A DNA stretch of 61,325 nt, the filler included. It is 4 parts of 4 records of this genome, joined end to end, with 100 filler letters (N's around TTAATTAATTAA, not from the genome) between each part and the next. Parts side by side here need not be neighbours in the genome. Positions count along the whole stretch, not along the records: positions 25,315 to 51,627 come from DRR723986_4975; 3 more parts are not named here. The stretch is one strand, 5' to 3'. The notes under the pieces were generated by a model. That model ran no database searches. It was not told the origin of the DNA and was given only the letters and a program-made list of their open reading frames with translations. Positions 29,653 through 51,727 of this stretch are shown here, one piece after another. The position numbers and the translations under genes are program-made. Position 1 is the first letter of the stretch; each line of letters begins with the position of its first letter.

Positions 29653-30381
29653 ATGAAACAAACAGCTAATACAAATGAGGGCCCGAAACAGGACTATGTT
29701 CCGGCCCTTGGATTCGCCTGGGCAACCAGGTTATACGACAGCGCAATTCGTATATCCATGCGTGAGGGTCTGCTGCGCAAAAGGACGGTTGCGTGCGTCA
29801 AGCAAGCAAATCCATCTGAGGTTCTTGAGGCAGGATGTGGTACAGGGAGCTTGACCCTTGCTTTGGCAAGAGGACTTCCCGGCGCAAATATCACGGGTAT
29901 TGACATCGATCCTCAAGCCCTCAAAGTAGCACAGGAAAAACTTGCCGGTGCTGACACCGTCAAGCTGGTTGCAGCGAACCTTGTTAATTTGACGGATGTG
30001 GCAGGATTGTCAGAAAATCGATTTGATCATGTTGTTTCGAGCTTGGTTTTGCATCATTTAACAACCAGCCAAAAACATATTGTGCTGAAGAACCTGCGGG
30101 CTCTTTTGAATAAAGATGGCAAATTGACCATTGTGGATTGGGGACCGCCTGTCGGTATTGTTCAATATCTCGGCTTTTGGCTGGTAAGACTGCTAGACGG
30201 CTTGGAGGTGACAAGGGCCAACCGTGAAGGCAGGTTGCCATCACTATTGTCGGGGACTGGTTTTGCGATTGATGACGTCAAGCCGCTTCACCAAACGGTG
30301 CTAGGCACCGTCTGGTTATATCAAGCTCGTCGCAGCCCAGAAGGCTCGACCAATCAAAATATAACACTGGGGGACATTTAA
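29653..30381 (+). CDS. Class I SAM-dependent methyltransferase
   Basis: VLEAGCGTG, GIDID, FDHVVSSLVLHHL, L...GKLTIVDW. Confidence 0.9.
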   Translation: MKQTANTNEGPKQDYVPALGFAWATRLYDSAIRISMREGLLRKRTVACVKQANPSEVLEAGCGTGSLTLALARGLPGANITGIDIDPQALKVAQEKLAGADTVKLVAANLVNLTDVAGLSENRFDHVVSSLVLHHLTTSQKHIVLKNLRALLNKDGKLTIVDWGPPVGIVQYLGFWLVRLLDGLEVTRANREGRLPSLLSGTGFAIDDVKPLHQTVLGTVWLYQARRSPEGSTNQNITLGDI

Positions 30382-31391
30382 TGATCGAAATTATTCCAAA
30401 CTGGCATCCAATCTTGGTTCATTTCACAGTTGCGTTGTTGTTGACGGCGACGGCGCTTCTGACGTGGTCATTGGTTCGGGGGCGCATATCTGCTGATCAA
30501 ACCACGGTAGCCTCTGGCCGGCTTGTCTTGTGGATTGGTCTTGTTGCCGCGGTTCTGACTGTTGTAGCGGGTCTTCAGGCCTATTACAGCGTGGGGCATG
30601 ACGGCCCGTCGCACGCGGCGATGACCGATCACAGAAACTGGGGTTTTGGTGCCCTCGCAGCTTTCCTTGTTGCCGGTGTATTGAGCTGGACCCGGCGAAA
30701 TTCTATCCTGTCGGTGCGTGATGTTGTTCTTTTGCTTGCCTCAAGCAGCATTTTGCTTGTCACCTCCTACAAGGGTGGTGAACTTGTCTATCGTTACGGG
30801 CTCGGCGTTCAATCATTGCCAGCGGTTACGGGCGACGGTCACGATCATGATCACGGTGATGGAGCACCACAAGAGCACGATAATGACGCTGCAACAGAGG
30901 ATGATTGCGGTGACGGTGTAGCTCAAGATCATGACGATGCTGGTGCCAAAGAACATGACCACGGCGACGTTAAAGAGGGCAAAGATGCTGACGAAAAAAA
31001 GGGCCATGACCATCCGGACGCTGTTCGGAGTGACCCCGGGCTAGTTGCTGACGCACTCTATACGGCGCTGCGTGAAGGCGATGAGGCCGCGGTTGAGAAA
31101 ATCCTCGCCGAGGATGTATTGATTCTGGAGGGTGGTCACGCGCAAACCAGCAGAGCTGACTATATGGGCGGCCATATGAAATCGGACATGGCATTTCTAC
31201 CTAATGTGAATAGCGAGACTCTAGACCGCAAGGTTAACCAGGCGGGCGATTTGGCCTGGGTGATCACCCACTCTCGTACCCAGGGAAGCTACCGGGACAA
31301 GGAAATTGATGAGTTGTCCCGCGAGATGCTGGTGATGAAGCATGATGGCCATAACTGGCGAGTAACGCTTATCCATTGGGGTGAGAAGTGA
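30381..31391 (+). CDS. DUF2231 membrane domain + His/Asp-rich linker + NTF2/SnoaL-like domain fusion
   Basis: IIPNWHPILVHF, H..M..H, GGELVYRYGLGV; repeated HDH/HDD linker; C-terminal ILEGG...Y...H...D, WRVTLIHW. Confidence 0.78.
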   Translation: MIEIIPNWHPILVHFTVALLLTATALLTWSLVRGRISADQTTVASGRLVLWIGLVAAVLTVVAGLQAYYSVGHDGPSHAAMTDHRNWGFGALAAFLVAGVLSWTRRNSILSVRDVVLLLASSSILLVTSYKGGELVYRYGLGVQSLPAVTGDGHDHDHGDGAPQEHDNDAATEDDCGDGVAQDHDDAGAKEHDHGDVKEGKDADEKKGHDHPDAVRSDPGLVADALYTALREGDEAAVEKILAEDVLILEGGHAQTSRADYMGGHMKSDMAFLPNVNSETLDRKVNQAGDLAWVITHSRTQGSYRDKEIDELSREMLVMKHDGHNWRVTLIHWGEK

Positions 31392-31467: not shown

Positions 31468-31499
31468 GAAAATCAGAAAAATCAAAAAAGGTGAGACAC

Positions 31500-31919
31500 A
31501 TGAAACCGATGACGATTGGAAAACTTGCCAAAGCGACAGGCGTTAGCGCAGAGACCATCAGATACTATGAGCGCTTCGGTTTCCTGCCCTCACCTGACCG
31601 CTTGGAATCCGGATACCGCGTATATGGAAGTGATAGTATTCAACGGGTCCGCTTCATTAAGGAAGCGCAGGCGCTGGGGTTCACATTGGCCGAAGTGAGT
31701 GACCTGATTGGCCTTACGGCCGACGAGCACGCCGACTGCGCCCAGGTCAATGAGAAGGCGACCCAAAAACTTCAAGAGATCAATAAGAAGATCAAGGCAC
31801 TAAAAAAAATGCGAGGCGCGCTTAAAATACTGTCACAGCGGTGCCCCGCCGACGAGCAACCACTAAGTGAATGCAGTATTGTTAATCATTTATATGATGT
31901 TGGAGAGGTTGCTATTTAA
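31500..31919 (+). CDS. MerR-family metal-responsive regulator (paralog 1)
   Basis: TIGKLAK.TGVS.ETIRYYER.G, GYRVY, LGFTL.E; Cys in ADCAQV and CPADEQPLSEC. Confidence 0.93.
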   Translation: MKPMTIGKLAKATGVSAETIRYYERFGFLPSPDRLESGYRVYGSDSIQRVRFIKEAQALGFTLAEVSDLIGLTADEHADCAQVNEKATQKLQEINKKIKALKKMRGALKILSQRCPADEQPLSECSIVNHLYDVGEVAI

Positions 31920-32773: not shown

Positions 32774-33190
32774 CTACATTTCCCGCTCGCCGTATAGGTG
32801 GTTGATAATGCTGCATTCACTTAGTGGTTGGTCATCGGCCGGACAGTACTGCGCCAACACCGTGAGGTTTCGTTTGATTTTGCGCAACAATTTCAGTTTT
32901 TCATTGATCTGTTTGAGTTTGGCTTGCGCCGTCTCGTTCATACGGGCACAATCTGCGACGGGGTCTTCTGTTATCGACAGCAGCTCCTTGGTTTCTCGCA
33001 GAGTAAAACCAAGAGTTTGGGCATTTTTGATGAACGTGAGTTGCAACAGGCTTTCTTGACCATACACCCGGTATCCGGACGAAAGTCGACCCGGCTTGGG
33101 AAGGATGCCCCGGCGCTCATAATAGCGGATAGTTTCAACGCTGACACCGGTGGCGTCGGCGAGCTTTCCTATGGTCAATTGAACTGTCAT
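32774..33190 (-). CDS. MerR-family metal-responsive regulator (paralog 2)
   Basis: TIGKLA..TGVSVETIRYYERRG; ADCARM and CPADDQPLSEC. Confidence 0.93.
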   Translation of the reverse strand: MTVQLTIGKLADATGVSVETIRYYERRGILPKPGRLSSGYRVYGQESLLQLTFIKNAQTLGFTLRETKELLSITEDPVADCARMNETAQAKLKQINEKLKLLRKIKRNLTVLAQYCPADDQPLSECSIINHLYGEREM

Positions 33191-33222: not shown

Positions 33223-35706
33223 CTAGAGCTTCACATTCCTCAGCCTCAACGAGTTACTGATTACCGAGATTGAGCTGAGGCTCATGGCGGCAGCTGCGAA
33301 AATTGGTGAGATCAGCACACCCAAAAACGGATAGAGAATGCCTGCAGCCACCGGGACGCCGGCTGCATTATAAAATAGTGCGAAGAAAAGGTTTTGTTTG
33401 ATGTTTCGCATTGTCGCTTTTGACAGCTTGCGAGCGCGGACAATTCCGTTCAGGTCGCCTTTCACAAGGGTGAAGCCAGCACTTTCAATGGCAACATCAG
33501 CGCCTGTTCCCATCGCAATTCCCACATCGGCCTGCGCTAGAGCGGGCGCATCATTGACGCCGTCGCCGGCCATCGCAACCTTGTGTCCGGCCTCTTGCAG
33601 GTCACGAATAATTCTAGCTTTGTCCTCTGGCATCACATCAGCCCTAATCTCATCAATGCCAAGCCGTGCTGCGACCGAGCGCGCTGTGCGCTCATTATCG
33701 CCGGTCGCCATCACAATACGGAGGCCCTGAGCATGCAGGGCCTCCAGAGCCTCGGGGGTTGTTTCTTTGACCGGGTCTGCAACAGAGACGAGACCAGCGA
33801 TTTCGCTGCCAATAATTACGAACATCACTGTTTCGCCCTCGTCTCTCCGCGTATTGGCTACTTCCAGTAGATGGTCACTGTTCAGACCAAGTTCGGCAAG
33901 GAGTTTGGCATTGCCGAGCGCCACTGGTTTTCCGTCGACTACGCCTTTGACACCCATACCTGTAAGTGCTTCGAACTCGTCGGTTCGGACTATGTCAATT
34001 GTGCGATCTTTCGCCCCGGCGACAATGGCCTCGGCAAGCGGGTGTTCAGATCCCTTCTCCAGACTTGCCGCAAGGTGAAGAATTTCAGCCTCGCTATGGC
34101 CCGGTTCCGGTATTACCGCGACCAGTTTTGGCTTACCTAGTGTCAAGGTTCCGGTTTTGTCGACAATGAGCGTGTCAACTTTGGCGAACCTCTCGAGTGC
34201 CTCCGCGTTTTTTATCAATACGCCTGCCTGCGCTCCGCGGCCAGTGGCTGTCATAATGGACATTGGGGTCGCCAAGCCGAGGGCGCACGGGCACGCAATG
34301 ATCAGGACGGCAACGGCGGACACAAGACCGTAGGAAAGCGCGGGCACTGGTCCCCATGTTGCCCAAGCGGCGAAAGCCAAGATTGCGATCACAATCACGG
34401 CCGGCACAAATCTACCAGCAACGGTATCAGCGAGTTTTTGTATTGGTGCCCGGCTTCGCTGGGCGCTGGCAACCATTTCAACGATCTGGCTCAGCATGGT
34501 GTCGGCACCGACTCGCTGCGCCTCAACTATCAGACTACCCGTGCCGTTGATTGTCGCACCTGTGACATCGTCGCCTTGCACTTTTTCAACTGGTACCGGT
34601 TCGCCCGAGATCATGGATTCGTCGATAGAGGACCGTCCGTCAACGACCACGCCGTCCACAGGAACTTTGTCCCCCGGTCGCACGCGCAGGCGGTCGCCGA
34701 CAACAACATCCTCAAGTGGAATTTCCTCTTCAACGCCACCTTCGCGGATCACCCGCGCGGTTTTCGCAGCCAGATCCAGCAGCGCCCTGATCGCAGAACC
34801 CGTACGCTCGCGCGCACCAAGCTCCATCACCTGTCCAAGCAGAACCAGAACCACAATCACCGCCCCCGCTTCAAAATAGACGCCGACATGCCCGTCTGCA
34901 TCACGAAACCCGTCAGGGAATATGTCGGGTACAAGAACTGCTACGACGCTGAATATATAGGCAGCACCCACACCCATTCCGATGAGGGTGAACATATTCA
35001 GGCTTTTATTGATTACGGACTGAACACCGCGAACAAAGAAAGGCCATCCCGCCCAGAGAATAACCGGCGTCCCTAGGATAAGTTCTATCCACAAAGTCAG
35101 CTTTTCGCCGATCATGTCGCGGATAAAGCCCAGTCCGACAAAAGGGCCCATCGACAAAACAAGTAGCGGGACAGTTAAGAGCGCGCCGACCCAGAAACGA
35201 CGCCTGAAATCGACTAGTTCAGGGTTGGGACCTGCGTCTTCGGCAGGTATTCCCATCGGCTCAAGGGCCATGCCGCATTTGGGACAACTGCCGGGACCTT
35301 CCTGTATGACCTCGGGGTGCATGGGACAGGTGAACAGAGTGCCTTGTGGCATCGGTTCTGCAATTTCTGAGGGGTTAAGGTATTTTTCCGGCGCGACAGA
35401 AAACTTCTTTTCACACCTGTCAGAACAAAAATAGTAGACGGCCCCGTTGTAGGAATGAATATGGGCCGCACTCGCGCGCTCAACGTTCATGCTGCAAACT
35501 GGATCATTCGATTGTACGAACTGCGAAGGCGCTGTGGTGAATTTTGCTTCACACCCGATACTGCAGAAGAAAAAATCTTTTCCATCGTGGTGCAGATGGT
35601 TGGCCGCCACCTCAGGATCGACAAGCATGCCACAAACCGGATCGCGTACAATCGACTGGCCGTTATCATGATCCGTTTCATGGTTATGCGAATGATCTGA
35701 CGCCAT
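33223..35706 (-). CDS. copA: Cu(I)/Ag(I)-exporting P1B-1 ATPase with two YHS domains and a CPMHP heavy-metal-binding domain
   Basis: DPVCGM..FCS.C twice, [47 protein letters not shown] and MSLSS. ATG 35706 has a GGAGG RBS. Confidence 0.94.
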
Positions 35707-35742
35707 TGCTAGGCCTCCCAATGATTGATTAAATTTGGTCCC

Positions 35743-37885: not shown

Positions 37886-37916
37886 TTGACCCTGTACCGT
37901 GGTCAAGGGTTATTAT
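37886..37916 (+). promoter_or_regulatory. MerR-family promoter/operator (19-bp spacer) for the leader-cusCBA operon
   Basis: TTGACC-CTGTACCGTGGTCAAGGGT-TATTAT. The ATG lies 7 nt after the -10. Confidence 0.78.
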
Positions 37917-37923
37917 TCACCTT

Positions 37924-38334
37924 ATGCGATTCGCTACGAACATTGTTACACGGTTAATAGCCCTTCTCGCTTTAGGCGTGATTTTGGTGGCGCCTATGGC
38001 GTCCGCTCTGGACACACATGATTGCTGTCCAGAGACCTATCAAGGCGGCATGAGGGCACAGTCTCATGACCTGATGGCACACTATAGCCAAGGGAAGATG
38101 ATCAGCCACCAGACAGCGTCTGATCATGCGAGTATTGACCCGTCTTCCCCCGAAAAACTGTGTGATATTTCCTGCTGTGCAAATGTCGCCACTTGCGCCG
38201 TTATCTCATTAAACGCGCCTGATATGGCCGGATGGACTATACGCCCACAAGCGTTTAGGCCAATCGACGAAACGGCTTCCTCCCGGCATGCGAACCTAAA
38301 CACTCCCCCTCCCCGTATCTCTCTGATCGTTTAA
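37924..38334 (+). CDS. Cys/His/Met-rich exported leader protein with C-terminal PPP (CutF/CruR/CopL-like)
   Basis: Signal peptide, HDCC, CDISCCANVATC, ends NTPPPRISLIV. First gene of the cus operon. Confidence 0.72.
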   Translation: MRFATNIVTRLIALLALGVILVAPMASALDTHDCCPETYQGGMRAQSHDLMAHYSQGKMISHQTASDHASIDPSSPEKLCDISCCANVATCAVISLNAPDMAGWTIRPQAFRPIDETASSRHANLNTPPPRISLIV

Positions 38335-38417: not shown

Positions 38418-39713
38418 ATGTACAATCTGACTACGGTCTCAACAGCCGTTATTATAGCATTTACTTTTACGGTAAACGTTGGTGCTCTACAATCCAGTCC
38501 CCTCGGTATAGCGCAGGAAAAGCCAGCCGTCTCAGGTGAGCTATCTCTTCAGGAAGCCATTAAACTGGCGCTTTCGTCTGAGGATCCTTACCTGATGGAG
38601 CCGGGCGAACAGGCTGCGGCCTTTGATGATCGTGCGGTTTCAGATTCGCAACTGCCAGACCCCAAACTGAGAATGACATTTGCAAACTGGCCGACCAATA
38701 GCTTCAGTTATACGCAAGAAGCAATGACCCAGCTTCAGGTGGGGGTCAGTCAGGCTTTCCCGAAAGGGGATACGCTCCAGCATCGGCGGTCAAAGCGAAA
38801 AGCGCAGGCGACCAGCGAACGGTTCCGTCAGGAACTGCGTCAGCGGGAAATCATCCTGGATACGCGCCTTAACTGGCTCGACCTTTACTATTGGACCAAG
38901 GCGGAAGCCAAGGTGGGCGAAAGCCGAAAGGCAGTCGCAGAGCTTATAGAAGTTATTCAGGCTATTTTCGCAACAGGACGCGAGACAAGCCAGGACATCC
39001 TGAGAGCCGAGCTTGAACTCAGCCTTCTGGACGATCGCTTGGTGGAAATCGGCAGGAAGGCATCGATTTCCCGCGCGAAACTGGCACGCCGTATCGGTGA
39101 GGCAGCGGCACGTCGCCCCATTGCGATAACACCGCCTGGTCTGGTTCATCCCTCGGATGTGACGGCTCTTATTGATATTTTACCCCAACATCCTGCGGCC
39201 AAAATGTTCTCGGCGCGCGTTGAAGTGGCAGGCAAAGATGTCGATATCGCCGGTGAGCAATATAAACCCGGATGGACCGTTAATGTGGGGTACGGAGCGC
39301 GCGGTGCCGAGCGCGCTGATTTTGCCTCAGTCGGCGTAGTTATGGATGTGCCCCTTTTCACAGCAAAACGGCAAGACAGAGAGGTTTCTGCCGCAAAGCG
39401 GTCTCGTCAGGCATCCCGCCTGTCGCTGGACGGTGTTTTGCTGGATTTGAGAAGGAAGCTGCAGACAACCTATGCCGACTGGACGCGGCTTCAGGAGCGG
39501 ATTTCCCTCTATCAGTCGGTTGTCCTCAAGCGGGCAAAGGAAACCACAGAAGCATCGCTCACATCCTACCAGAGCGGTGTTACCGATTTTGCAGAACTGG
39601 TTAGAGCGCGGCTGGCAGAGCTTGATGCAGAGCTTAGTTTGATAAGGCTCCAGTCGGACCGATTGAAGGCTCAGGCCCAACTTCTATTCCTTGAAGGTGA
39701 AGACGATGCGTAA
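38418..39713 (+). CDS. TolC-family outer membrane efflux protein (CusC-like)
   Basis: Signal peptide, QLPDPKL, MTQ..VGVSQ.FP, Y.SG..DFAELVRA. Upstream of MFP and RND genes. Confidence 0.88.
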   Translation: MYNLTTVSTAVIIAFTFTVNVGALQSSPLGIAQEKPAVSGELSLQEAIKLALSSEDPYLMEPGEQAAAFDDRAVSDSQLPDPKLRMTFANWPTNSFSYTQEAMTQLQVGVSQAFPKGDTLQHRRSKRKAQATSERFRQELRQREIILDTRLNWLDLYYWTKAEAKVGESRKAVAELIEVIQAIFATGRETSQDILRAELELSLLDDRLVEIGRKASISRAKLARRIGEAAARRPIAITPPGLVHPSDVTALIDILPQHPAAKMFSARVEVAGKDVDIAGEQYKPGWTVNVGYGARGAERADFASVGVVMDVPLFTAKRQDREVSAAKRSRQASRLSLDGVLLDLRRKLQTTYADWTRLQERISLYQSVVLKRAKETTEASLTSYQSGVTDFAELVRARLAELDAELSLIRLQSDRLKAQAQLLFLEGEDDA

Positions 39714-41193
39714 AACAATTTTAACAGTAGCAGCGACGCTGACAATCGGAGCTGGTCTTGGTTACGGCGCAAGCATGCTGGGCCAGGCACCTGAAACTGG
39801 TGCCCCGGCGCAAAACGACGAAAAAGAGGTGCTTTACTGGATAGCGCCGATGGACCCTAATTATAGGCGCGACGAGCCTGGGAAATCACCCATGGGGATG
39901 GAGTTAATCCCTATTTACGCCGGAGACGAAGCTGGCGGCGATGATCCCAATGCACTGAAAATAAGTGGCGCAGTGGTCAATAACATCGGGGTGAGAACTG
40001 ATGTTGCGCTGGCTTCAGATCTGTCCCGTGAGATCGATACCATTGGGTTCATCACGTTCGACGAAGACAAGACGTCACATGTGCATGTACGCACAGCTGG
40101 CTGGGTTGAAAAACTATACAGGAAAGCGGTTGGCGAGGTTGTTCAAAAGGGCGAAGTGATATTCGAACTCTATTCACAGGAATTGGTAAATGCCCAGATA
40201 GAGTTTCTCCAGTCTGTCAGGCTCGACCAGAAAGGTTTTGCAAGCGCAGCACAAGAACGGCTTAAGGCTCTCGGAATGACCGAACGCCAAATCGCTACAG
40301 TTCAAAAAAGCGGTGAAGTGAAACAGCGTATCGAGGTTCTTGCTCCTCAAGATGGTGTTATTATAGCCTTGGAGATTGGTGAGGGCATGCATGTTACACC
40401 GGGCAAAACGGTGTTCTCTCTAGCAGATTTGTCATCCGTCTGGATCAAGGTTGACGTCTTCGAAGGCCAGTCCGACTGGGTAAGCGAAGGCCAGCAAGCA
40501 ACTATGACACTGCCTTTTCTCCCCGGTGAAACCTGGAACGGCACAGTAGATTATGTGTATCCCATCGTTGACCCAATGAGCCGAACAGTACAGGCGCGCT
40601 TGGCGTTTTCCAACCCCGACGGCCGGTTGAAGCCAAATATGTACGGTGAGATCAGTATTGCGGCATCTCCGGTGAAGGATGTCGTTTCCATTCCGCGCGA
40701 GGCGCTTATTCGCACCGGCAAAACTGATCGGGTTGTACTGGCACTAGGCGACGGCAAGTACCGACCTGCCGAAGTTGTTGCTGGCATGGAAAGTGGTGAC
40801 CGGGTGGAAATCAAAGCTGGCCTGTCAGCCGGCGAGGTGATCGTAACATCCGGTCAGTTTCTCATCGACTCCGAAGCCAGCATCAATAGTGCTTTTCTGC
40901 GTATGCTGGAAGCGGGTGCCAAGCAAGATCATGCCGGGCACGACATGGCTGAAATGGCTGACGAAATAGAGGTTCATCACGGCATGGGCACAGTTAACTC
41001 GGTGTCGGATGATGGCACCGTCAACCTTACCCATGACCCCATCTCTTCGCTTGGCTGGCCCGAAATGACGATGGGTTTTTCCGCCGACCCTGAGGTTGAT
41101 TTGTCATCTTTCGCACCCGGTGATCGCATGCATTTTGAGCTGACGAAAAGTGCTGATGGCCCCTTTGTTATCACCAAAGCGACAAAAATGTAG
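39706..41193 (+). CDS. cusB: CusB-type periplasmic adaptor with C-terminal CusF-like domain
   Basis: YWIAPMDP...PGKSPMGMEL (three-Met site), LKPNMYG, SGQFLIDSEAS; C-terminal HDPI..LGWPEMTMGF. Confidence 0.9.
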   Translation: MRKTILTVAATLTIGAGLGYGASMLGQAPETGAPAQNDEKEVLYWIAPMDPNYRRDEPGKSPMGMELIPIYAGDEAGGDDPNALKISGAVVNNIGVRTDVALASDLSREIDTIGFITFDEDKTSHVHVRTAGWVEKLYRKAVGEVVQKGEVIFELYSQELVNAQIEFLQSVRLDQKGFASAAQERLKALGMTERQIATVQKSGEVKQRIEVLAPQDGVIIALEIGEGMHVTPGKTVFSLADLSSVWIKVDVFEGQSDWVSEGQQATMTLPFLPGETWNGTVDYVYPIVDPMSRTVQARLAFSNPDGRLKPNMYGEISIAASPVKDVVSIPREALIRTGKTDRVVLALGDGKYRPAEVVAGMESGDRVEIKAGLSAGEVIVTSGQFLIDSEASINSAFLRMLEAGAKQDHAGHDMAEMADEIEVHHGMGTVNSVSDDGTVNLTHDPISSLGWPEMTMGFSADPEVDLSSFAPGDRMHFELTKSADGPFVITKATKM

Positions 41194-44377: not shown

Positions 44378-45394
44378 ATGAACAGCTTCATCATTCCAAA
44401 TTGGCACCCGTTTTTGGTGCACTTCACTATCGCTCTTGTCGTTACATCGAGTGTTTTCTTTGTCCTGACGAAACTGTTGCCCAAGCGAGCTGATACTTTT
44501 GCGATTGTTGCGAAATGGACCCTGTGGTCGGCGGCATTTGTTACGGTGTTAACCCTGCTTGCAGGGTTTGCAGCCTTTAACTCAGTAGCCCACGATGACA
44601 CGGCGCATATCGTGATGAAAACGCACCGTCTATGGGCGCTATTTGCAGCAGCCGCGCTTTTCATCGTGGCAATATGGAGTTATCGGACGAAGGGCGCTCC
44701 ATTAGTGTTGGTGGTAGGTAGTGTCGTAGTAGCGGGTCTTGTCGGGACCACCGGCTATCTGGGTGCGGAGCTTGTTTACCGCCATGGTCTGGGGGTTATG
44801 CGCCTGCCGGACAATACCGGCGAGGGCCACAGTCATGCTGGCGGGAGCGGACATAGCCATAATGACGGCGCCGTTTCAACCGGTGACCATCATACTGCCG
44901 TACCCCCTACAAAACATGAACAGAGGGGGGCAGATGGTCACGGGCACAGCAACGCGACCAGTCAACATGACCACGGCGAAGACTGCGGCGATATCAAACA
45001 TGCTAACGGTGAAGGGTCGGCTTTAGCGTTTGCGAAGAGCTTTCAAGTTGCATTGAATGGTGGTGATTTCGATACGGTCGCGGGGAGCTTTGCCGCTGAC
45101 GCCGTTATTTTTGAGAACGGCGTGAGAGAAGTATCGCTGGAAGACTACCTCGAGCATCACCTCAAGCCGGAAATGCCGATGCTAAAAGCGGCTAACAGGC
45201 AAGTCCTCAAACAAGATGTTGTCGAAACGAATAGTATAGCAATCGTTTCGACCGCCTCGATGCTCTCTATCAAAAGTAAGGGAAAGCAACATGACTTTTA
45301 CAGCGCCGAAACACTTACCCTCCAAACTCAGAAGGGTGAATGGAAGGTGATCCACGTGCACTGGTCCTCTCGTCCAGTCGTAAAAAGGAACTAA
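44378..45394 (+). CDS. DUF2231 + His-rich linker + NTF2/SnoaL-like fusion (paralog of 30381-31391)
   Basis: IIPNWHPFLVHF, HD..AH..M..H, GAELVYRHGLGV, GHSH repeats, IFENG...Y..HH, WKVIHVHWSS. Confidence 0.78.
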   Translation: MNSFIIPNWHPFLVHFTIALVVTSSVFFVLTKLLPKRADTFAIVAKWTLWSAAFVTVLTLLAGFAAFNSVAHDDTAHIVMKTHRLWALFAAAALFIVAIWSYRTKGAPLVLVVGSVVVAGLVGTTGYLGAELVYRHGLGVMRLPDNTGEGHSHAGGSGHSHNDGAVSTGDHHTAVPPTKHEQRGADGHGHSNATSQHDHGEDCGDIKHANGEGSALAFAKSFQVALNGGDFDTVAGSFAADAVIFENGVREVSLEDYLEHHLKPEMPMLKAANRQVLKQDVVETNSIAIVSTASMLSIKSKGKQHDFYSAETLTLQTQKGEWKVIHVHWSSRPVVKRN

Positions 45395-45429
45395 CCCCAC
45401 GCTTTAACACCAAACAGAAGGGAAATATC

Positions 45430-45771
45430 ATGAAGAAGCTTCCACAAATTGCCACGGTGTTGGCGATAGTTGTTGGTTTAAATGCGCCAGTTGTCTCGGC
45501 TGCAGACGAAAACCAACATTCGCATCAGGCTGAAAAAAAAGAAGTGATGATTCACGCAGTGGTCAATAGCATCAATTCAACTGACCGCATGGTAAATATA
45601 AGCCATGGGCCTATCAAGGATCTGAGTTGGCCCGCGATGACAATGGATATGAAAGTTGCACAAAACGTAGACATGGACGTGTTTCACAAGGGTGAAGAGA
45701 TTATGGTTTCGTTATCCCGGGATGGAAAAGGTATATTTGAAATTGTCAAAGTGATGGTTCATGGTCACTAG
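45430..45771 (+). CDS. cusF: CusF-family periplasmic Cu/Ag chaperone
   Basis: Signal peptide; ISHGPI..LSWPAMTMD (His-Trp-Met-Met site). Confidence 0.88.
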   Translation: MKKLPQIATVLAIVVGLNAPVVSAADENQHSHQAEKKEVMIHAVVNSINSTDRMVNISHGPIKDLSWPAMTMDMKVAQNVDMDVFHKGEEIMVSLSRDGKGIFEIVKVMVHGH

Positions 45772-45841
45772 GCTTTATCATTTCTTTTTAATTTATCGTT
45801 GTAATGTATTATAGTTGAACCAAGCGTAATGTAGGTTGAGA

Positions 45842-46276
45842 ATGAATAGACTTGGAAAATGGGGGCGTTTGGTAGCTCTGGTCAACATCATTGTATGGAC
45901 CAGTTCGCCTGTAATGTCGCTTTCCAACCCAGAGCGGTTTCACCCGCAGAGTAGTCTCGAGGTTTTAGCTGACGGGTTGTTGGTGCTTCAATCGATTGAA
46001 TCCGTTGACTTAGAGAAGCTACCGGATTTGCGCTCTGAGACGTTCAATACATTTCTTAGCTTACATGTCCAGATACCATCGCCGGATGACAACACGCACC
46101 TTCACGGCATATTGGATGGATGTTGCGGGTCCGGCGGATTGGTTTGTGATGTAGGCCTGATCCTGAGGTCGACAATTGTGCCGCAATCCTCAGTGACACA
46201 AATACATGGTCTGAGAGCAGTGCACAATCTTGCGAGCCTCGCCCTTTCTCCTTTATATCACCCTCCGAAACCTTAG
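45842..46276 (+). CDS. Cys-containing exported leader protein ending in HPPKP, upstream of a TonB-dependent receptor (DUF2946/CruR-like architecture)
   Basis: N-terminal hydrophobic segment, HLHG...GCCG.....C, C-terminal SPLYHPPKP*. Confidence 0.62.
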   Translation: MNRLGKWGRLVALVNIIVWTSSPVMSLSNPERFHPQSSLEVLADGLLVLQSIESVDLEKLPDLRSETFNTFLSLHVQIPSPDDNTHLHGILDGCCGSGGLVCDVGLILRSTIVPQSSVTQIHGLRAVHNLASLALSPLYHPPKP

Positions 46277-46426
46277 AACTTCCAGCCATTTGATCAGTTG
46301 TCGCTTGTTATAGAGAAGCTGCTCTTTTGGCATAACACACTCAAGGAAATATTGGTTTAAAGCTCACTGAGTCCCTTAAGATTCAGGCAGAGCACATTGG
46401 GGCTAAACGGTCCCGTGGAGGAAGTT

Positions 46427-48532
46427 ATGACTAGAATATTCAAACCAACACTGTCTCTTTTTGGAGCAACTTGCGCGTCGGCGCTGCTGGCGGGCAATGC
46501 ATGGTCCCAAGAGGCTGATACAGATGGCAGTCTACTCGAAGAAGTAATTATTACAGCCCAAAAGCGCGAGTCCAGTCTTCAGGATACGCCTATTAGCGTA
46601 TCTGCTTTGACGGGGGAGATGCTGGAGAACATCGGCATCCGCACGATAGAAGACTTCACTTTCTTTGTACCCGGAATAACCGTCACCAACGATTCAATGG
46701 CGATCGTAAATATTCGTGGCATCGGGACATCCGCCTTCGGCGTGGCTACTGACCCGAGTTCGACTGTTCACATAGACGGTATTTATCAGCCTCGTCCCAC
46801 CACAGGCTACCAGGATATGTTTGACGTTGAGCGCTTGGAATTGTTGCGAGGCCCGCAAGGCGTTTTGTTTGGTCGAAATTCAACCGGGGGAACGCTTAAT
46901 ATCATATCCAAAGCGCCAACCGACGAATTTGAGGGTGCCGTCGGTGTAACGTTCGGGAACTTTAACAAGCGCACGTTCAGCGGCACCGTTTCGGGTCCGT
47001 TGGCTGACAGTGTGCGCGGACGTGTTACTCTGCTCAAGAATGATCGAGATGGTATTTATACCGACATCGTTTCCGGAGACGAATATCAGGATCAGGACAA
47101 CATTGCCGGGCGCGCAACCATTGCTATAGACTTGGCAGAAGGCTTTGAGTTGATACTGCGCGGCGATTTTAGCAGAGAGCGCGAAACTGGTTTTCCTGCA
47201 ATACGAACTTTTTATCCACAAGAGTTTGTTGATGCGGGTGCCACGATTCCCAGCCGCGACCGCGACCTCGCTTTTGATACTACGCCGGTCAGTGATCTGG
47301 ACGTCTGGGGAGTTTCTTCAACTGCCATATGGCACGGAGAGGATGTTACGTTCAAATCTATTACGTCATACCGTGAGAGCGATATTGAACAGGTAATCGA
47401 CGCGGACGCCACCGACTTGTTTCTCTTCGATATTGGATTTCGGGAAAATTCTCGATCATTCACTCAGGAACTACAGCTTACTAACAATGATTCGTCCCGA
47501 CTTGAGTGGATCGTCGGTGCTTTCTTTCTGAATGAAGATGGGGACGGCGGCATCGACTTGTTGTTTCAGGACCCGAAAATCAACATTTCCGAGGCCAATA
47601 TCACCAATGCCTATGCGTTGTTTGGTCAAGGCACCTATAATGTGACTGACAGGCTTCGTGCGACTTTCGGCGTTCGTTACAGCTACGAGAAAAAGAGCTA
47701 TAATTTCTCGACAGATGTAAACGGAGCGAACGTCGACGGCGGTTCGCCGTCAGCCGATTGGAAGGCTTGGACACCCCGGTTCGCGGTAGATTATGACATC
47801 AACGATGATGTTTTGGCCTATGTATCGGCAACGCGCGGTTTCAAATCGGGTGGTTTCCAGCTCGGCGATGCCGGCGCTTTTGATCCAGAATTTCTGTGGA
47901 GTTATGAGGCTGGCTTGAAGTCGACACTTTTGGATAAGAGATTACGCGCAAATATTGGCCTGTTCCAATATGATTACACCAATTTGCAGGTGGTAGAGTT
48001 CGTCGGTGGTGTTGCAACGACGAGCAACGCCGGTGAGGCGACGGTGCGTGGTATCGAAGGTGAGTTTGTTGCCAGGGTTGCCGACGATTTCGACATAAAC
48101 GCAACGGTAGCTTATCTGGACGCTACATATGACGTATTCTTCGAGGGGGGCGAGGATTTTTCCGGAAACCGGCTCGCCAACTCTCCCAATTGGGCTTATT
48201 CCTTCGGCGCTCAGTATACTACGGAGGTTGGTTCCTCGGGTCACCTGACCATCAGGGGCGATTATGCGTGGCGTGATAACGTGGATTTCAAGCGAGACAA
48301 TCTACCGCAATTTCGTGCGGATACATACTCGCTGCTGAACGCGCGTATCTCCTTTACGTCCATTGACGAACTTTGGGAAGTGTCGCTTTACGGTCAAAAC
48401 CTGACTGACAATCGTTATGCCACTTATATTACCCTTGGCAGAAACGTTGGCGGTGCGGCTGACCCGAACTTGCCAGTGACCGTTTTTGGTGAACCGCGTC
48501 AATATGGGATTCAACTGAAAAGGAACTTCTAG
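46427..48532 (+). CDS. TonB-dependent outer membrane receptor
   Basis: Signal peptide, LEEVIITAQKR TonB box, plug DVERLELLRGPQGVLFGRNSTGG, C-terminal PRQYGIQLKRNF. ATG 46427 has a GGAGGA RBS. Confidence 0.93.
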   Translation: MTRIFKPTLSLFGATCASALLAGNAWSQEADTDGSLLEEVIITAQKRESSLQDTPISVSALTGEMLENIGIRTIEDFTFFVPGITVTNDSMAIVNIRGIGTSAFGVATDPSSTVHIDGIYQPRPTTGYQDMFDVERLELLRGPQGVLFGRNSTGGTLNIISKAPTDEFEGAVGVTFGNFNKRTFSGTVSGPLADSVRGRVTLLKNDRDGIYTDIVSGDEYQDQDNIAGRATIAIDLAEGFELILRGDFSRERETGFPAIRTFYPQEFVDAGATIPSRDRDLAFDTTPVSDLDVWGVSSTAIWHGEDVTFKSITSYRESDIEQVIDADATDLFLFDIGFRENSRSFTQELQLTNNDSSRLEWIVGAFFLNEDGDGGIDLLFQDPKINISEANITNAYALFGQGTYNVTDRLRATFGVRYSYEKKSYNFSTDVNGANVDGGSPSADWKAWTPRFAVDYDINDDVLAYVSATRGFKSGGFQLGDAGAFDPEFLWSYEAGLKSTLLDKRLRANIGLFQYDYTNLQVVEFVGGVATTSNAGEATVRGIEGEFVARVADDFDINATVAYLDATYDVFFEGGEDFSGNRLANSPNWAYSFGAQYTTEVGSSGHLTIRGDYAWRDNVDFKRDNLPQFRADTYSLLNARISFTSIDELWEVSLYGQNLTDNRYATYITLGRNVGGAADPNLPVTVFGEPRQYGIQLKRNF

Positions 48533-48542
48533 TCTCCTTGCA

Positions 48543-48573
48543 GCTCACGCGGCGAGCTCTTCGCCGCGTGAGC
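48543..48573. terminator. Strong GC hairpin after the receptor gene (no U-tract)
   Basis: GCTCACGCGGCGA-GCTCT-TCGCCGCGTGAGC, a 13-bp perfect stem. Could be a terminator or an mRNA-stabilising element. Confidence 0.55.
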
Positions 48574-48648
48574 CCCGCAAACTAATTGTATTTGTTTAAA
48601 TGTCGAGAATGTGCCGAGCACATCGACGCTGTTTTGGAGCTTCCATAC

Positions 48649-49584
48649 ATGACTACGACAACGATAGTGCAGACGGTTTTGGTCATGTTACTGTGGGCAA
48701 GCTGTTTTCCTTTGATCACTGTGGGAATTGACTATGCGCCTCATCTGACCTTCGCCGCCATGCGCGCATTCATTGCTGGATTGACACTGATAAGCTTAGC
48801 CTTCCTGTTGAAGCGTCCTTTGCCCCAAAAGCGGAATGACTGGTTTTTGCTGGTTCTTATTGGACTTGGCGCAACCAGTCTCGGCTTTCTAGGCATGTTT
48901 CATGCCGCAGAATTGGTTTCACCTGGTATCGCAACCGTCATTGCCAATACTCAACCACTTCTGGCGGCAATCTTGGCAAGCTTTGTATTAGGCGAATATT
49001 TGACGGGCCGCAGTAAAGTGGCGTTAATGGTCAGCTTTCTGGGTGTTATTGTCATCGCGTCTCCTCATCTGTTGGGAGACGGGAGTACAAGTTTTGCTAT
49101 TGGCTTGGCCTATATAATTCTGGCCGCTCTTGGTATCACCTTGAGCAATGTACTAATAAAAAAGATTTCGGGCCGGGTAGACATCTTCATGGCTATGGGT
49201 TTGCAAATGTTGTTCGGCAGTCTGCCGCTTATGGGTGTCGCCGCTATGACTGAGCCGACCGCAATCCAATGGTCATATACATTCATCTCGGTCTTGCTCA
49301 TCCTTAGTTTGCCTGGAACGGCGCTTGTCTATTGGCTCTGGTGTTCTGTCCTGGAGAAAGTGCCGTTAAACCGGGCCAACGCCTTCAGTTTTTTAATACC
49401 GGTATTTGGCCTGACAATCGGCGTGTTATTTTACGGCGAGAGTTTGACAGTATTTCAGTTTGTAGGTGTTTTTATCACCATCGTCGGCGTTGCATTTGTG
49501 GTTCGCGGTGGCACTGACCGCGCTTCACTAAAAAAGCCGGTTGAAGAATTGGATTTTGCGACCGAGTCGAAACGACACAAATAG
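48649..49584 (+). CDS. DMT/EamA-family transporter
   Basis: LWASCFP, FAAMR, IANTQPL, FLIPVFG..GE. About 10 TM segments. Confidence 0.88.
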   Translation: MTTTTIVQTVLVMLLWASCFPLITVGIDYAPHLTFAAMRAFIAGLTLISLAFLLKRPLPQKRNDWFLLVLIGLGATSLGFLGMFHAAELVSPGIATVIANTQPLLAAILASFVLGEYLTGRSKVALMVSFLGVIVIASPHLLGDGSTSFAIGLAYIILAALGITLSNVLIKKISGRVDIFMAMGLQMLFGSLPLMGVAAMTEPTAIQWSYTFISVLLILSLPGTALVYWLWCSVLEKVPLNRANAFSFLIPVFGLTIGVLFYGESLTVFQFVGVFITIVGVAFVVRGGTDRASLKKPVEELDFATESKRHK

Positions 49585-49641
49585 ATAAATCGTGAAACGG
49601 TATTTAGCTCACTAGTGAGAGCTTCCCAAAGGAGTAAGAAT

Positions 49642-50970
49642 ATGGAAAGCACGTATCAAAAAGCCAGCCTAAGCCTAACAGGCACGGTGGCAATGGGTAC
49701 TGGTGTGATGATCGGGGCGGGAATTTTCGCCCTCACCGGACAGGTGGCTGAATTTGCTGGGCCTCTTTTCCCTATAGCGTTCTTGCTTGCGGCCGTCATA
49801 AGTAGTTTCAGTGCCTACACATACATCAAGGTCTCGAACAAATATCCCTCCGCCGGGGGTATTGCCATGATCCTCCACAAAGCATACGGAACGACAACCA
49901 TCACGGGTGCAGCCGCGCTGATGATGGCATTTTCGATGATTATTAATGAAAGCCTGGTTGCGCGTACCTTTGGCACTTATACGCTGCGGCTCTTTGATAT
50001 TCAGGGCGATAACCTTCTGGTGGCTTTGCTGGCTGTGGGGCTGATTGTTTTCGCGTTTCTCGTCAATATCGCCAAAAACAGCGTCATCAGCAGTATCTCC
50101 ACGGTGACTGCGGTGATTAAAATTGGCGGTATTATGATTTTTGCGCTTGTGGCCCTTTGGGGGGCGGGCTTTTCTTTTCAGTCGACTGTTACAACACCTA
50201 GTACCGAAACTGGTGTTACTGGTTTTCTGGCCGGTGTTGCATTGGCGATATTGGCGTACAAGGGATTCACAACGATCACGAACAGCGGCGGCGAGGTCAA
50301 AAACCCTGAGAAAAATGTCGGCCGCGCCATCATGATCTCATTGTTCATCTGCCTGATAGTTTACATGCTCGTTAGCTACGCTGTCGGAGCCGCTTTATCT
50401 ATTGAAGAGATTGTCGCGGCAAAAGACTATTCTCTAGCGGAGGCCGCTCGTCCGGCCGTTGGCCAATACGGCGTATGGTTTACAGTTGCGATCGCCATGA
50501 TTGCAACTGCTTCAGGATTGCTTGCCAGCGTTTTTGCCGTTTCGCGCATGCTGGCGATGCTAACCGACATGAACCTTATTCCGCACAGTCATTTTGGCAT
50601 GCCCGGGACAGTTCAAAAGCACACCATTGTTTACACCGTTGTCCTGGCTAGTTTCTTGGCGGCGTTTTTCGATCTCAGCCGGATTGCTTCGTTGGGGGCG
50701 ATTTTTTATTTGGTGATGGACATCATTATCCATTGGGGTGTTTTCAGGCATATTCGAAGTGATATCGGTGCCAACGGCGTGATCCTGATTTGCGCCATTA
50801 TACTCGATGCGAGTGTCTTGACTGCCTTCCTGATCATAAAAGGTTCCAGTGACCTCCCAATCGTCGCAATTGCGATCATAAGTGTGGTGACGGTTTTTGC
50901 GTTTGAAAAGTTATATCTCAGCCGCATTCGCGCAAAAACAGCGAATGCAACTAATCATTCTCACGGGTAA
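49642..50970 (+). CDS. APC-family amino acid permease
   Basis: GTGVMIGAGIFAL, PSAGG, LAYKGFTTITN..GE..NP. ATG 49642 has an AAGGAG RBS. Confidence 0.88.
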   Translation: MESTYQKASLSLTGTVAMGTGVMIGAGIFALTGQVAEFAGPLFPIAFLLAAVISSFSAYTYIKVSNKYPSAGGIAMILHKAYGTTTITGAAALMMAFSMIINESLVARTFGTYTLRLFDIQGDNLLVALLAVGLIVFAFLVNIAKNSVISSISTVTAVIKIGGIMIFALVALWGAGFSFQSTVTTPSTETGVTGFLAGVALAILAYKGFTTITNSGGEVKNPEKNVGRAIMISLFICLIVYMLVSYAVGAALSIEEIVAAKDYSLAEAARPAVGQYGVWFTVAIAMIATASGLLASVFAVSRMLAMLTDMNLIPHSHFGMPGTVQKHTIVYTVVLASFLAAFFDLSRIASLGAIFYLVMDIIIHWGVFRHIRSDIGANGVILICAIILDASVLTAFLIIKGSSDLPIVAIAIISVVTVFAFEKLYLSRIRAKTANATNHSHG

Positions 50971-50983
50971 CAGGCACATTATC

Positions 50984-51627
50984 ATGCCAATACTAGACAT
51001 CACATTGATACTGGTCGCCTCTGCAATTTTTTTATTGCTGCAGTTGCGGCGCGTCAGAAAAAACTTGTTTTGGACTGCGACAGTAACGCCGCTTGCGTCG
51101 ATCATTGGAAGCGGTTTTTTGATTGTCGCGCCGCTATTGGCAGAAGTTGTTGGTAAGTTGGCGCCGTTGGCGATGGCCGCAATTGCGGGCGTTGCCATCT
51201 GGATCGGTTCGGTCATCCGGTTTAATATCAGACATGCGGAGCCCCTTCTGAACCAAGCCGACGGTGACCCACATCTTCAGCTTATGGAGCAGATGTCTCG
51301 CGTTGTGTTGTTTGCGGCCTATGTGATCTCAATCGCCTTCTATCTCCGCTTGATGTCGTCGTTTGTTCTGGAGGGCTTCGGTTACAATGTGGCGCTCTGG
51401 GCTCAAATCATGACAACGGTTATTTTGCTCGCCATAAGCGCCATAGGTGCGTGGTCGGGTCTTGCTGGGCTTGAGCGCATGGAGACGGTGTCGGTTTCCA
51501 TCAAACTGGCGATTGTGGTGTCGCTCATGATCGGCTTGTTCCATCACAACGTCGTTGAAGGGTTTCAGATAGACGGTGTTGTCGCTGATCATTTAACAAT
51601 AGGCGAGAAATTAGGGATGCTGGCGGG
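50984..51627 (+). CDS. APC-like membrane protein (3' truncated)
   Basis: WTATVTPLASIIGSGFL..AP, AYVISIAFYL. Hydrophobic. Confidence 0.65.
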
Positions 51628-51727
51628 NNNNNNNNNNNNNNNNNNNNNNNNNNNNNNNNNNNNNNNNNNNNTTAATTAATTAANNNNNNNNNNNNNNNNN
51701 NNNNNNNNNNNNNNNNNNNNNNNNNNN
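51628..51727. other. Artificial contig spacer
   Basis: N44-TTAATTAATTAA-N44. Confidence 0.99.

Follow-up and report, generated by a model that had tools for sequence, protein, structure and literature searches.

We analysed a stretch of DNA of 61,325 nucleotides (nt), four parts of one genome joined end to end and hereafter called the window, and within it a small open reading frame (ORF) that lies directly upstream of a gene for a TonB-dependent receptor and that we call the leader. The leader occupies 45842-46276 on the plus strand, from an ATG at 45842 to a TAG stop at 46274-46276, and encodes 144 amino acids (aa) ending in PLYHPPKP, with an apparent export signal or anchor, a putative His/Cys sensor, a linker of variable sequence and a putative stall site, HPPK. 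Behind it on the same strand comes the receptor (46427-48532, 701 aa, Plug and barrel domains), which is co-inherited with the leader, and then an EamA/DMT transporter, an APC permease and an ORF of 260 aa (50897-51679) for which Pfam and NCBIfam scans returned no family. A preliminary description of this DNA had reported a 144-aa ORF with a hydrophobic N-terminal segment, the pattern HLH..CC..C and a Pro-Pro pair 38 residues past the last Cys, and we found each of these at 45842-46276, as H86-L-H88, C94-C95, C102 and P141-P142, the last 38 residues downstream of C102.

The leader, its family and its receptor

Comparison across relatives indicates that 45842-46276 is a real, translated gene. 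Merging of near-identical copies (L001, L007, L055, L057 and L058) left 13 lineages with DNA; P0009, for which there is protein only, enters the alignments and stays outside the codon counts. An open frame of 141-164 aa stands directly before the orthologous receptor in these 13 lineages, at pairwise identities of 14-67%, and for this reason the leader is a gene far beyond chance expectation. The ratio of nonsynonymous to synonymous divergence (dN/dS) is 0.14-0.38 (6 of 8 pairs computable), with synonymous sites between lineages near saturation (proportion of synonymous differences, pS, 0.5-0.8). Relative to the 99%-identical copy in G001, the window differs at 5 of 435 bases in the ORF, 19 of 1200 in the receptor and 21 of 150 in the spacer, which makes the ORF 13 times less diverged than the spacer adjoining it. 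That the ORF is a chance or untranslated frame, with the receptor controlled only by transcription factors of the surrounding island (MerR, AraC), is hardly credible to us: the leader's weak Shine-Dalgarno (SD) sequence and the absence of any meaningful match in Pfam and NCBIfam scans would fit it, but frames of similar length with invariant residues persist in 13 lineages down to 14-24% identity, dN/dS is well below 1, and the divergence of the ORF is far below that of the neighbouring spacer.

A possible sigma-70-type promoter of the leader lies at 45787-45815 on the plus strand (TTTAAT, 17 nt, TATAGT); it is a weak candidate, unlisted by the consensus scan because its -35 hexamer has 3 of 6 matches. 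G001 has the same 70 nt in front of the ORF. The box scan found no MerR-type box directly upstream of the window's leader, so read-through from the upstream cus operon is also possible, and inspection by eye of the region before the leader for Fur or Zur boxes found no palindrome, the only shared motif being a -35-like CTTGAC in several lineages. In the G002 homologue (L003 1468-1914) the hydrophobic segment is preceded by none of ATG, GTG and TTG, and a CTG 6 nt past GGGGAG is the likely start. Two raw RNA runs, which bear the species label of a carrier of the DNA, gave 0 reads and are no test of expression. A 391-nt contig from a metatranscriptome library matches 45956-46345 exactly; it spans two thirds of the leader, runs 69 nt into the spacer and does not include the receptor. 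An attenuated transcript could account for it, although the end of a contig does not mark the end of a transcript and the contig may derive from carried-over DNA.

Alignment of the small ORFs upstream of homologous receptors, a check proposed in the preliminary description, showed the Cys motif and the Pro-Pro pair to be conserved in 13 lineages. Invariant in the 13 aligned sequences are P23, L27, H75, H86, H88, D92, C94, C95, G98, C102, L138, P141 and P142, and nearly invariant are W19, F71, G99, D103, H140 and K143. The N-terminal hydrophobic segment (45866-45922, plus strand, about residues 9-27) carries the conserved W19, P23 and L27: basic residues come first, the hydrophobic run includes W19, S/A-P23 and L27, and small residues follow (S-L-S here, A-L-A in most relatives). 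Judged by eye and from a predicted helix, the N-terminus would be a Sec signal peptide or an N-in anchor. That helix (residues 6-28) is the only confident part of an AF2 (AlphaFold2) model built on 13 sequences; with a mean predicted local distance difference test score (pLDDT) of 55, a predicted template-modelling score (pTM) of 0.27 and a pLDDT below 50 over residues 86-144, the model is not usable for fold comparison.

The putative metal-ligand cluster (46064-46147, plus strand) comprises H75, H86-x-H88, D92, C94-C95, G98-G99 and C102 and is built on invariant columns. The conserved ligand spacing is CC-x6-C, with no CxxC, and the His, Cys and Asp residues together may well bind a metal. 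A linker of fixed length and free sequence (46148-46261, plus strand) then leads over 37-38 aa from C102 to P141: the last Cys and Pro-Pro are 37 or 38 residues apart in 13 of 13 lineages, and the linker columns are without consensus. In the window Pro-Pro lies 45 residues from C95. In the 12 genus-type lineages the putative stall motif reads [YRFV]-[HL]-P-P-[KR], and the distant L048 alone has T-P-P-P-R. The tail behind P-P-[KR] measures 2-27 residues in the lineages with DNA and 33 in P0010; L054 and L059, of 157 and 164 aa, have 20 and 27 residues after Pro-Pro. We refer to leaders of this family as HPPK-type.

The family appears to be narrow and unrecognised by current models. A word-indexed search of 5.8 billion proteins returned only the leader's own cluster (1 match among 40 candidates). 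Six-frame searches found the leader in 7 of 32 genomes of its genus and, among 401 genomes sampled from the order, in 1 further genome, G095, which belongs to another family (E = 2.1e-5). A profile search of 1.84 billion representatives gave 10 clusters at E up to 1e-10, the 11th match, P0012, being a long repetitive protein (2663 aa, 46 bits, 21 stretches). Scans of metagenome and genome contigs were run with a 4-sequence alignment. The former added 9 loci, and marine metagenome contigs are also among the carriers of leader relatives; the latter returned the G008 contig again and L050, which we rejected as an off-frame false match inside a membrane-protein gene.

The leader stands directly upstream of the orthologous receptor in 13 of 13 lineages, and within the genus receptor orthologues (74-99% identity) occur in exactly the 7 genomes that have the leader, the next receptor matches reaching at most 40%. 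The spacer between the two genes measures about 143-173 nt in 8 lineages, 252 nt in 1, 61-72 nt in 2 and 28-29 nt in 2. The best NCBIfam match of the receptor is TIGR01783, a siderophore-receptor subfamily (182.6 bits, below the cut-off of 223.5), and among solved chains the yersiniabactin/pesticin receptor FyuA is nearest (4epa, E = 1e-28). The OprC model TIGR01778 is not among the best 25 of the 27 NCBIfam matches, and no OprC chain is among 26 PDB matches at E up to 1e-10; the earlier impression that the receptor is not OprC-like agrees with these tests. A TonB-transducer/anti-sigma arrangement was rejected because the receptor is without an N-terminal signalling domain in Pfam. The string of receptor, DMT and APC genes emphasised earlier is present in the window and is not conserved, since only the window, G001 and G019 have EamA and APC behind the receptor. 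The window's receptor with an EamA exporter-type gene behind it (46427-51679) resembles the cntO...cntI pairing of metallophore systems.

The proline codons and the ribosome-binding site of the receptor

The ribosome-binding site (RBS) of the receptor (46417-46429, plus strand) consists of GGAGGA (46417-46422), a 4-nt spacer and the ATG at 46427. The same arrangement occurs in 12 of 13 lineages, the distant L048 having a spacer of 8 nt. Located 2-3 nt upstream of the SD, a conserved GC hairpin with a GGGC-loop-GCCC core (46399-46414, plus strand) is found in all 12 genus-type lineages with DNA (14 sequences). The proposed stall site, Pro141-Pro142, has the codons CCT CCG (46262-46267, plus strand). 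As the pair is encoded CCU-CCN, the mRNA reads CCUCC (46262-46266), which is the complement of GGAGG in the receptor's SD.

We found the first Pro codon to be CCU in 11 of 13 lineages, the third base of the second codon varying (G, C, A). Among the other Pro codons of these ORFs CCU accounts for 22 of 71 (31%; binomial p = 1.0e-4), and in control leaders with RAPP it stands at the same position in 2 of 23 (Fisher p = 8.7e-6); the invariant P23 is encoded by all four Pro codons. RNAalifold on 10 sequences returned CCUCCN:NGGAGG as the only consensus helix. With at least 60 nt of the ORF included in the fold, the Pro-Pro codons were the top partner of the SD in 9 of 12 lineages. In short context the predicted pairing probability (P) is 0.77-0.80 in the window, 0.77 in G019, 0.63-0.65 in G002, at least 0.99 in both G008 and G022, 0.90 in L051, 0.98 in L054 and 1.0 in L053 and L059, and in G006 the pairing appears only in a larger folding context. 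Three lineages whose stops lie 5, 9 and 20 codons past Pro-Pro have a Pro-Pro-to-SD distance of 86-87 nt, so the stop codon is not the reference point. Pairing over such a range has a precedent in a preprint (PMC12697547), which describes anti-SD-like sequences hundreds of nt away that pair with the RBS in vivo in B. subtilis and that are depleted from genes.

A second potential partner of the SD is AACTTCC (46277-46283, plus strand), directly after the stop. The preliminary description had called it the perfect complement of GGAAGTT (46420-46426), which overlaps GGAGGA, and had cautioned that a 7-bp match might arise by chance, and both statements hold: of 5000 dinucleotide shuffles of the 120-nt spacer body, 171 gave a perfect complement, at least 7 nt long, to the 16 nt that precede the ATG. 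It fell within the first 15 nt after the stop in 14 of 5000, which is only modest support because the position was picked after the match had been seen. On one reading the operative switch would be the AACUUCC:GGAAGUU helix, melted by a ribosome that stalls or terminates at the leader's end, as a design common to the whole family. Spacer-only folds predict the helix with P = 0.99 in the window and G001, closing the SD, and in G019 they predict an analogous helix of different sequence that joins the stop codon to the SD flank. AACTTCC is also retained in G001 and in a metagenome variant (run X6), although 46284-46397 varies in both, and it keeps the SD closed when the Pro-Pro codons are masked in silico.

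However, among the other four loci folded as spacer only, G006 alone pairs, and weakly, 10-14 nt after the stop (P 0.3-0.64); no post-stop anti-SD helix is predicted in G002, G008 or G022, the metagenome loci not being among these folds. With the 3′ end of the ORF in the fold, the SD pairs preferentially with the Pro-Pro codons over AACUUCC (P 0.77-0.80, as above), and the stop lies 2-27 codons after Pro-Pro while the Pro-Pro-to-SD distance stays in classes. Seven unchanged bases at about 20% local divergence are expected, by our arithmetic, about 1 time in 5. An anti-SD at the stop as a geometry shared between leaders was not borne out, the AACTTCC:GGAAGTT helix being predicted, among the loci folded, only in the window and its 99% relative. 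We consider it improbable that this helix is the family's switch, and AACTTCC looks rather like a lineage-specific second partner of the SD.

The middle of the spacer (46284-46398, plus strand), which holds the variation against G001 noted above (21 differences in 150 nt), is structured, with predicted hairpins kept via G-U/G-C changes. Its segment 46284-46397 is about 20% different from G001, whereas the flanking genes differ by 1-2% and their synonymous sites by 2-6%. The same differences recur in a metagenome contig of run X6, and the segment was either exchanged by recombination or is unusually fast-mutating. Rfam gave no match in 45700-46520 at E up to 1, and a consensus scan of the leader-receptor spacer gave no promoter and no terminator.

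The proposed stall site also sits in a G-poor patch in which C exceeds G (46180-46339, plus strand), a possible Rho-loading (rut-like) region. GC skew in this patch is -0.20 to -0.42 and elsewhere about 0 or positive. When ORF and spacer are scanned together, the 80-nt segment with the strongest C>G skew (-0.30 to -0.53) includes the Pro-Pro codons in 13 of 13 lineages, and the rest of the ORF in these lineages ranges from -0.11 to +0.27. For cruR, PMC9426467 maps the rut site to a C>G region that a stalled ribosome is thought to hide, and by analogy Rho may use the patch described here. Unmasking of the SD and blocking of Rho point the same way, so a stalled ribosome should mean that the receptor is expressed.

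The copper island and a proposed mechanism

The leader and the receptor belong to a copper island (29.6-51.7 kb of the window). At its start are a methyltransferase and a DUF2231-DUF4440 membrane protein, then two MerR regulators (31491-31919; 32774-33190, minus strand), a CopA-type P-type ATPase with YHS and HMBD domains (33223-35721, minus strand), a PEMT-like protein and PPK2. A first small ORF (37828/37924-38334), here the first leader, heads cusC-cusB/F-cusA; between it and the HPPK-type leader lie, in this order, CusC, a CusB-CusF fusion, CusA, a second DUF2231-SnoaL protein and CusF. CusB (39691-41193) has an HMBD at its N-terminus and a CusF domain at its C-terminus, and a separate cusF gene is also present (45340-45771).

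In 11 of 13 lineages the leader has Cus, CopA-type ATPase or MerR genes within a few kb. The pair of leader and receptor is preceded by cusCBA-DUF2231/SnoaL-cusF in the window, G001, G019 and G002, and by copA-merR in L054, L059 and G022/G030, the last with DUF2231/SnoaL and PepSY_TM downstream as well. Divergent cusC/cusB or copA stand beside it in L051, L052, L053 and L056, a MerR gene lies 2 kb upstream in G006, and no copper gene was seen in the flanking DNA available for the G008 and G095 loci. Most loci also have a SnoaL/DUF4440 protein beside the receptor, in many cases fused to DUF2231. The DUF2231-SnoaL/DUF4440 membrane fusion occurs twice in the window (30381-31391, 44378-45394) and again in L039 (5573-6652), L054 (6723-7742) and L059 (6745-7854).

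The window's cus leader is headed, at 37886 and with 0 mismatches, by a 21-bp MerR-type box, TTGACC-N9-GGTCAA, in a promoter with a 19-bp spacer (then TATTAT), and boxes with 0-3 mismatches stand before the cus leaders of G001, G019, G002 and G022. An identical box heads the HPPK-type leader itself in G022. In L052, L054 and L059 a co-directional box lies 1.45 kb upstream of the HPPK-type leader, with a TPPP-type leader, SnoaL, the HPPK-type leader and the receptor strung behind it. In 7 of 13 lineages a MerR-type promoter box thus lies upstream of the HPPK-type leader-receptor unit in the same orientation, and the neighbouring genes suggest that the box is copper-activated.

The promoter of the first leader (37886-37924) ends about 7 nt before that leader's ATG (37924), so that translation of the first leader may use an mRNA that is leaderless or nearly so; 'LPIDPVPWS' in the long call of its ORF is the MerR-type box read as codons. 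Leaders of the form CC...CC...TPPP[RK] lie behind MerR-type boxes in L052 (2579-3001), L054 (2546-2965), L059 (about 2516-2950) and L053 (7336-7854) and, on the minus strand, in L056 (260-676) and L052 (1755-2144). In the metagenome islands these leaders precede cusC, or a SnoaL gene and then an HPPK-type leader and receptor.

Taken together, we regard it as rather probable that the HPPK-type leader is a cis-acting metal-sensing arrest peptide of the CruR/CutF kind, in a separate sequence family. Its apparent export signal, putative ligand cluster, ruler-like linker and Pro-Pro pair, with rapid divergence outside these elements, match the design published for CruR and CutF (PMC9426467, PMC9973294, 10.1101/2025.02.05.636593). 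Arrest, metal binding, the metal concerned, the use of Rho and the sign of the regulation are what we infer for this locus, as follows. The peptide would be made with an export signal, and its Cys/His cluster, 38-55 residues behind P141-P142, would at that point be just out of the exit tunnel. Metal held by H86, H88, D92, C94, C95 and C102, most likely copper, would set the dwell time on the Pro-Pro codons. A parked ribosome would cover CCUCC, which would otherwise pair with the receptor's GGAGGA, and would also cover the C-rich, G-poor patch where Rho could load. A stall would lead to expression of the receptor, and release would leave the RBS masked and transcription possibly terminated in the 150-nt spacer. 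In the window AACUUCC after the stop would serve as a second, redundant mask.

As to the sign, we lean slightly towards a metal that prolongs the stall, as in CutF, with the receptor induced under copper stress. The lean comes from the 7 of 13 lineages in which the unit follows a co-directional MerR-type box: if the box is copper-activated, a leader through which copper shut the receptor off would leave the receptor never expressed, which tilts the balance to the logic of CutF. Nearly as likely is a CruR-like alternative in which the leader is an insulator that stops read-through from the efflux operons into the importer.

In its full form the proposal is more tentative, and we put it forward as a possibility that is less likely than not. 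The stall Pro codons would be the receptor's anti-SD inside a Rho-loading patch, one ribosome would both unmask an RBS 155 nt away and block termination, the His2-Asp-Cys3 sensor would be unrelated to DUF2946, and periplasmic copper, as the position behind MerR-type promoters would imply, would prolong the stall and so switch the FyuA-like receptor on. If true, an import receptor would be switched on, not off, by copper stress, a logic undescribed for a TonB receptor. A FyuA-like receptor in a copper-stress island may import something helpful under copper excess and not copper itself.

Several results weigh against the arrest-peptide reading and its RNA part. The CCUCC:GGAGG pairing shows no covariation because both sides are invariant, and Pro codons are C-rich by nature, so part of the CCNCC match and of the C>G patch comes free with any Pro-Pro. 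Two of 13 lineages (L052/L055 and L056-L058) encode the pair as CCC-CCN, the SD being predicted there to pair with pyrimidine runs 14-19 nt after or 6-10 nt before the Pro-Pro codons. Larger folding contexts move the SD partner elsewhere in G019, G002 and L051. When the codons are recoded synonymously in silico, the SD becomes more accessible in only 6 of 10 CCU lineages, the others being the window, G019, G006 (except with CCC) and L051. With a ribosome footprint placed on Pro-Pro, the SD of the window stays closed (P unpaired 0.01), since AACUUCC then becomes its partner, and thermodynamic modelling of the switch, by ribosome mask or recoding, gives no clean on/off for the window. At the level of the peptide, a dN/dS of 0.14-0.23 in close pairs and the conservation of F71 and H75 suggest that more than the stall motif is selected. 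HPPK is moreover not an arrest motif of the RAPP type, for which the criterion is Arg-Ala/Gly-Pro-Pro, or RAPG/RAGP, at the arrest point (Fujiwara et al. 2025), and 'HPP' does not occur in PMC12992588.

The selection on the peptide bears directly on another explanation, namely that the ORF encodes an ordinary exported or anchored small metal-binding protein, such as a periplasmic chaperone or an accessory of the receptor, with no role in cis and with the Pro-Pro and the RNA complementarity incidental. Conservation of the export-type N-terminal segment and of the His/Cys/Asp ligands would suit such a protein, as would purifying selection over the whole ORF (dN/dS 0.14-0.38), the conserved F71 and H75 upstream of the sensor, and co-inheritance with the receptor, which also fits a protein partner. 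Against it, identity between leaders falls to 24-43% in genomes that share 74-90% in the receptor, and a linker of fixed length and free sequence that ends in an invariant L-x-x-P-P-[KR] is hard to explain for a folded domain. The poor AF2 model points the same way, though its alignment has only 13 sequences, and a small protein would leave the preference for CCU, the C>G patch and the conservation of the SD module without a reason. We therefore think this explanation unlikely and prefer the arrest peptide.

Comparison with known leaders

CruR (Bp2923) of Bordetella pertussis is a DUF2946/PF11162 upstream ORF of cruR-bfrG-bp2921 in which CxxC, 45 residues and RAPP follow one another, the spacing having been shown to matter (Roy et al. 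2022, PMC9426467), and its arrest was shown in vitro (Fujiwara et al. 2025, PMC12992588). Like the HPPK-type leader, CruR is a small ORF with an N-terminal export signal and the first gene before a TonB-dependent transporter. The Cys motif and the C-proximal Pro-Pro are 45 residues apart in CruR, and here 45 from C95 and 38 from C102; the spacer is long in both (162 bp in CruR, about 143-173 nt in 8 lineages here), a C>G region lies at the end of the ORF, and a PepSY_TM gene follows downstream in one relative here (G022). The two differ in the Pro-Pro motif (HPPK or LPPR here, RAPP in CruR), in the ligands (HxH-x3-D-x-CC-x2-GG-x2-C here, CxxC in CruR) and in that the putative stall codons are complementary to the downstream SD here, whereas the model for CruR involves Rho only. 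The HPPK-type leader also lies inside efflux islands behind MerR-type promoters, and the sign of its regulation may differ.

By every sequence test that we ran, the leader family is not a DUF2946 family. None of 7 family members matches PF11162 (cut-off 23.7 bits) even at E up to 10, and when 41 relatives were searched in six frames with PF11162, the 26 places found, in 20 genomes, did not include the locus of any HPPK-type leader. Comparison by hhalign with 23 DUF2946 proteins gave probabilities of 0.3% (7-sequence profile) and 1.2% (13-sequence profile). All 23 of these controls have R-[AG]-P-P, and no HPPK-type member has Arg-Ala/Gly before Pro-Pro. The family has neither the model match nor CxxC/CxxxC nor, outside the distant L048 with its PPP, RA/GPP or PPP, and shares with DUF2946/PF11162 leaders the Cys-to-Pro-Pro spacing and the position before a TonB gene. 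The preliminary description had spoken of a divergent family of arrest regulators that governs an importer, of which the conserved family, the fixed Cys-to-Pro-Pro distance and the constant place at the head of the same importer gene stand firm, and the arrest is putative.

CutF of Rhodobacter capsulatus is an exported sensor peptide whose poly-proline stall frees the masked RBS of the next gene, and 'CutF-like proteins' have been defined by rules, as described in Ozturk et al. 2023 (PMC9973294) and in 10.1101/2025.02.05.636593. The HPPK-type leader would likewise be an exported peptide whose proposed Pro-Pro stall frees the RBS of the next gene, and TonB-type genes are the second most frequent class of neighbours of CutF-like proteins in these sources. 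In CutF, however, the mask is a stem-loop downstream of cutF and the motif is PPP, whereas here the best-conserved mask would be the stall codons themselves and the motif is PP-K. Under the published rules the window protein has a fitting length, Pro-Pro position and neighbour, its signal peptide being judged by eye and from the AF2 helix only. P0010, L054 and L059 fall outside the length or Pro-Pro filters, having 20-33 residues after Pro-Pro where the filter allows 15.

The first leader of the window, in the same island, resembles the HPPK-type leader in its export-type N-terminus and its Cys-Cys, 42 residues and Pro-Pro-Pro-[RK] near the end, and both leader types occur in series in one gene string in L052, L054 and L059. 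It differs in lying directly behind a MerR-type box and in preceding efflux or SnoaL genes, not a receptor. The remark in the preliminary description that the two leaders of the window are without obvious similarity is in line with hhalign probabilities of 1.4% and 0.9%. The family of the first leader has the motif H-x-CCPE ... C-D-I-S-CC ... T-P-P-P-[RK] and a weak DUF2946 echo (E = 0.26); hhalign detected no relation of the TPPP[RK] family to DUF2946 or to the HPPK-type family. A protein of G095 that has both CC-x6-C and T-P-P-P-R hints at a common origin of the leader types.

In the SecM-secA system, the RBS of the next gene is hidden by an mRNA structure, which is altered when a ribosome arrests close to the end of an exported leader. 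SecM differs from the leader described here in that its signal is secretion activity, not a metal, and it has no sequence relation to the HPPK-type leader.

The two metal-sensing arrest leaders studied so far are both DUF2946 proteins, and the HPPK-type family would represent the same design in another sequence family, one with a different putative stall motif and ligand set that DUF2946-based surveys would miss. With three leader types in the same copper islands (RAPP/DUF2946, TPPP[RK] and HPPK), the contributions of the individual motifs could be compared within one organism.

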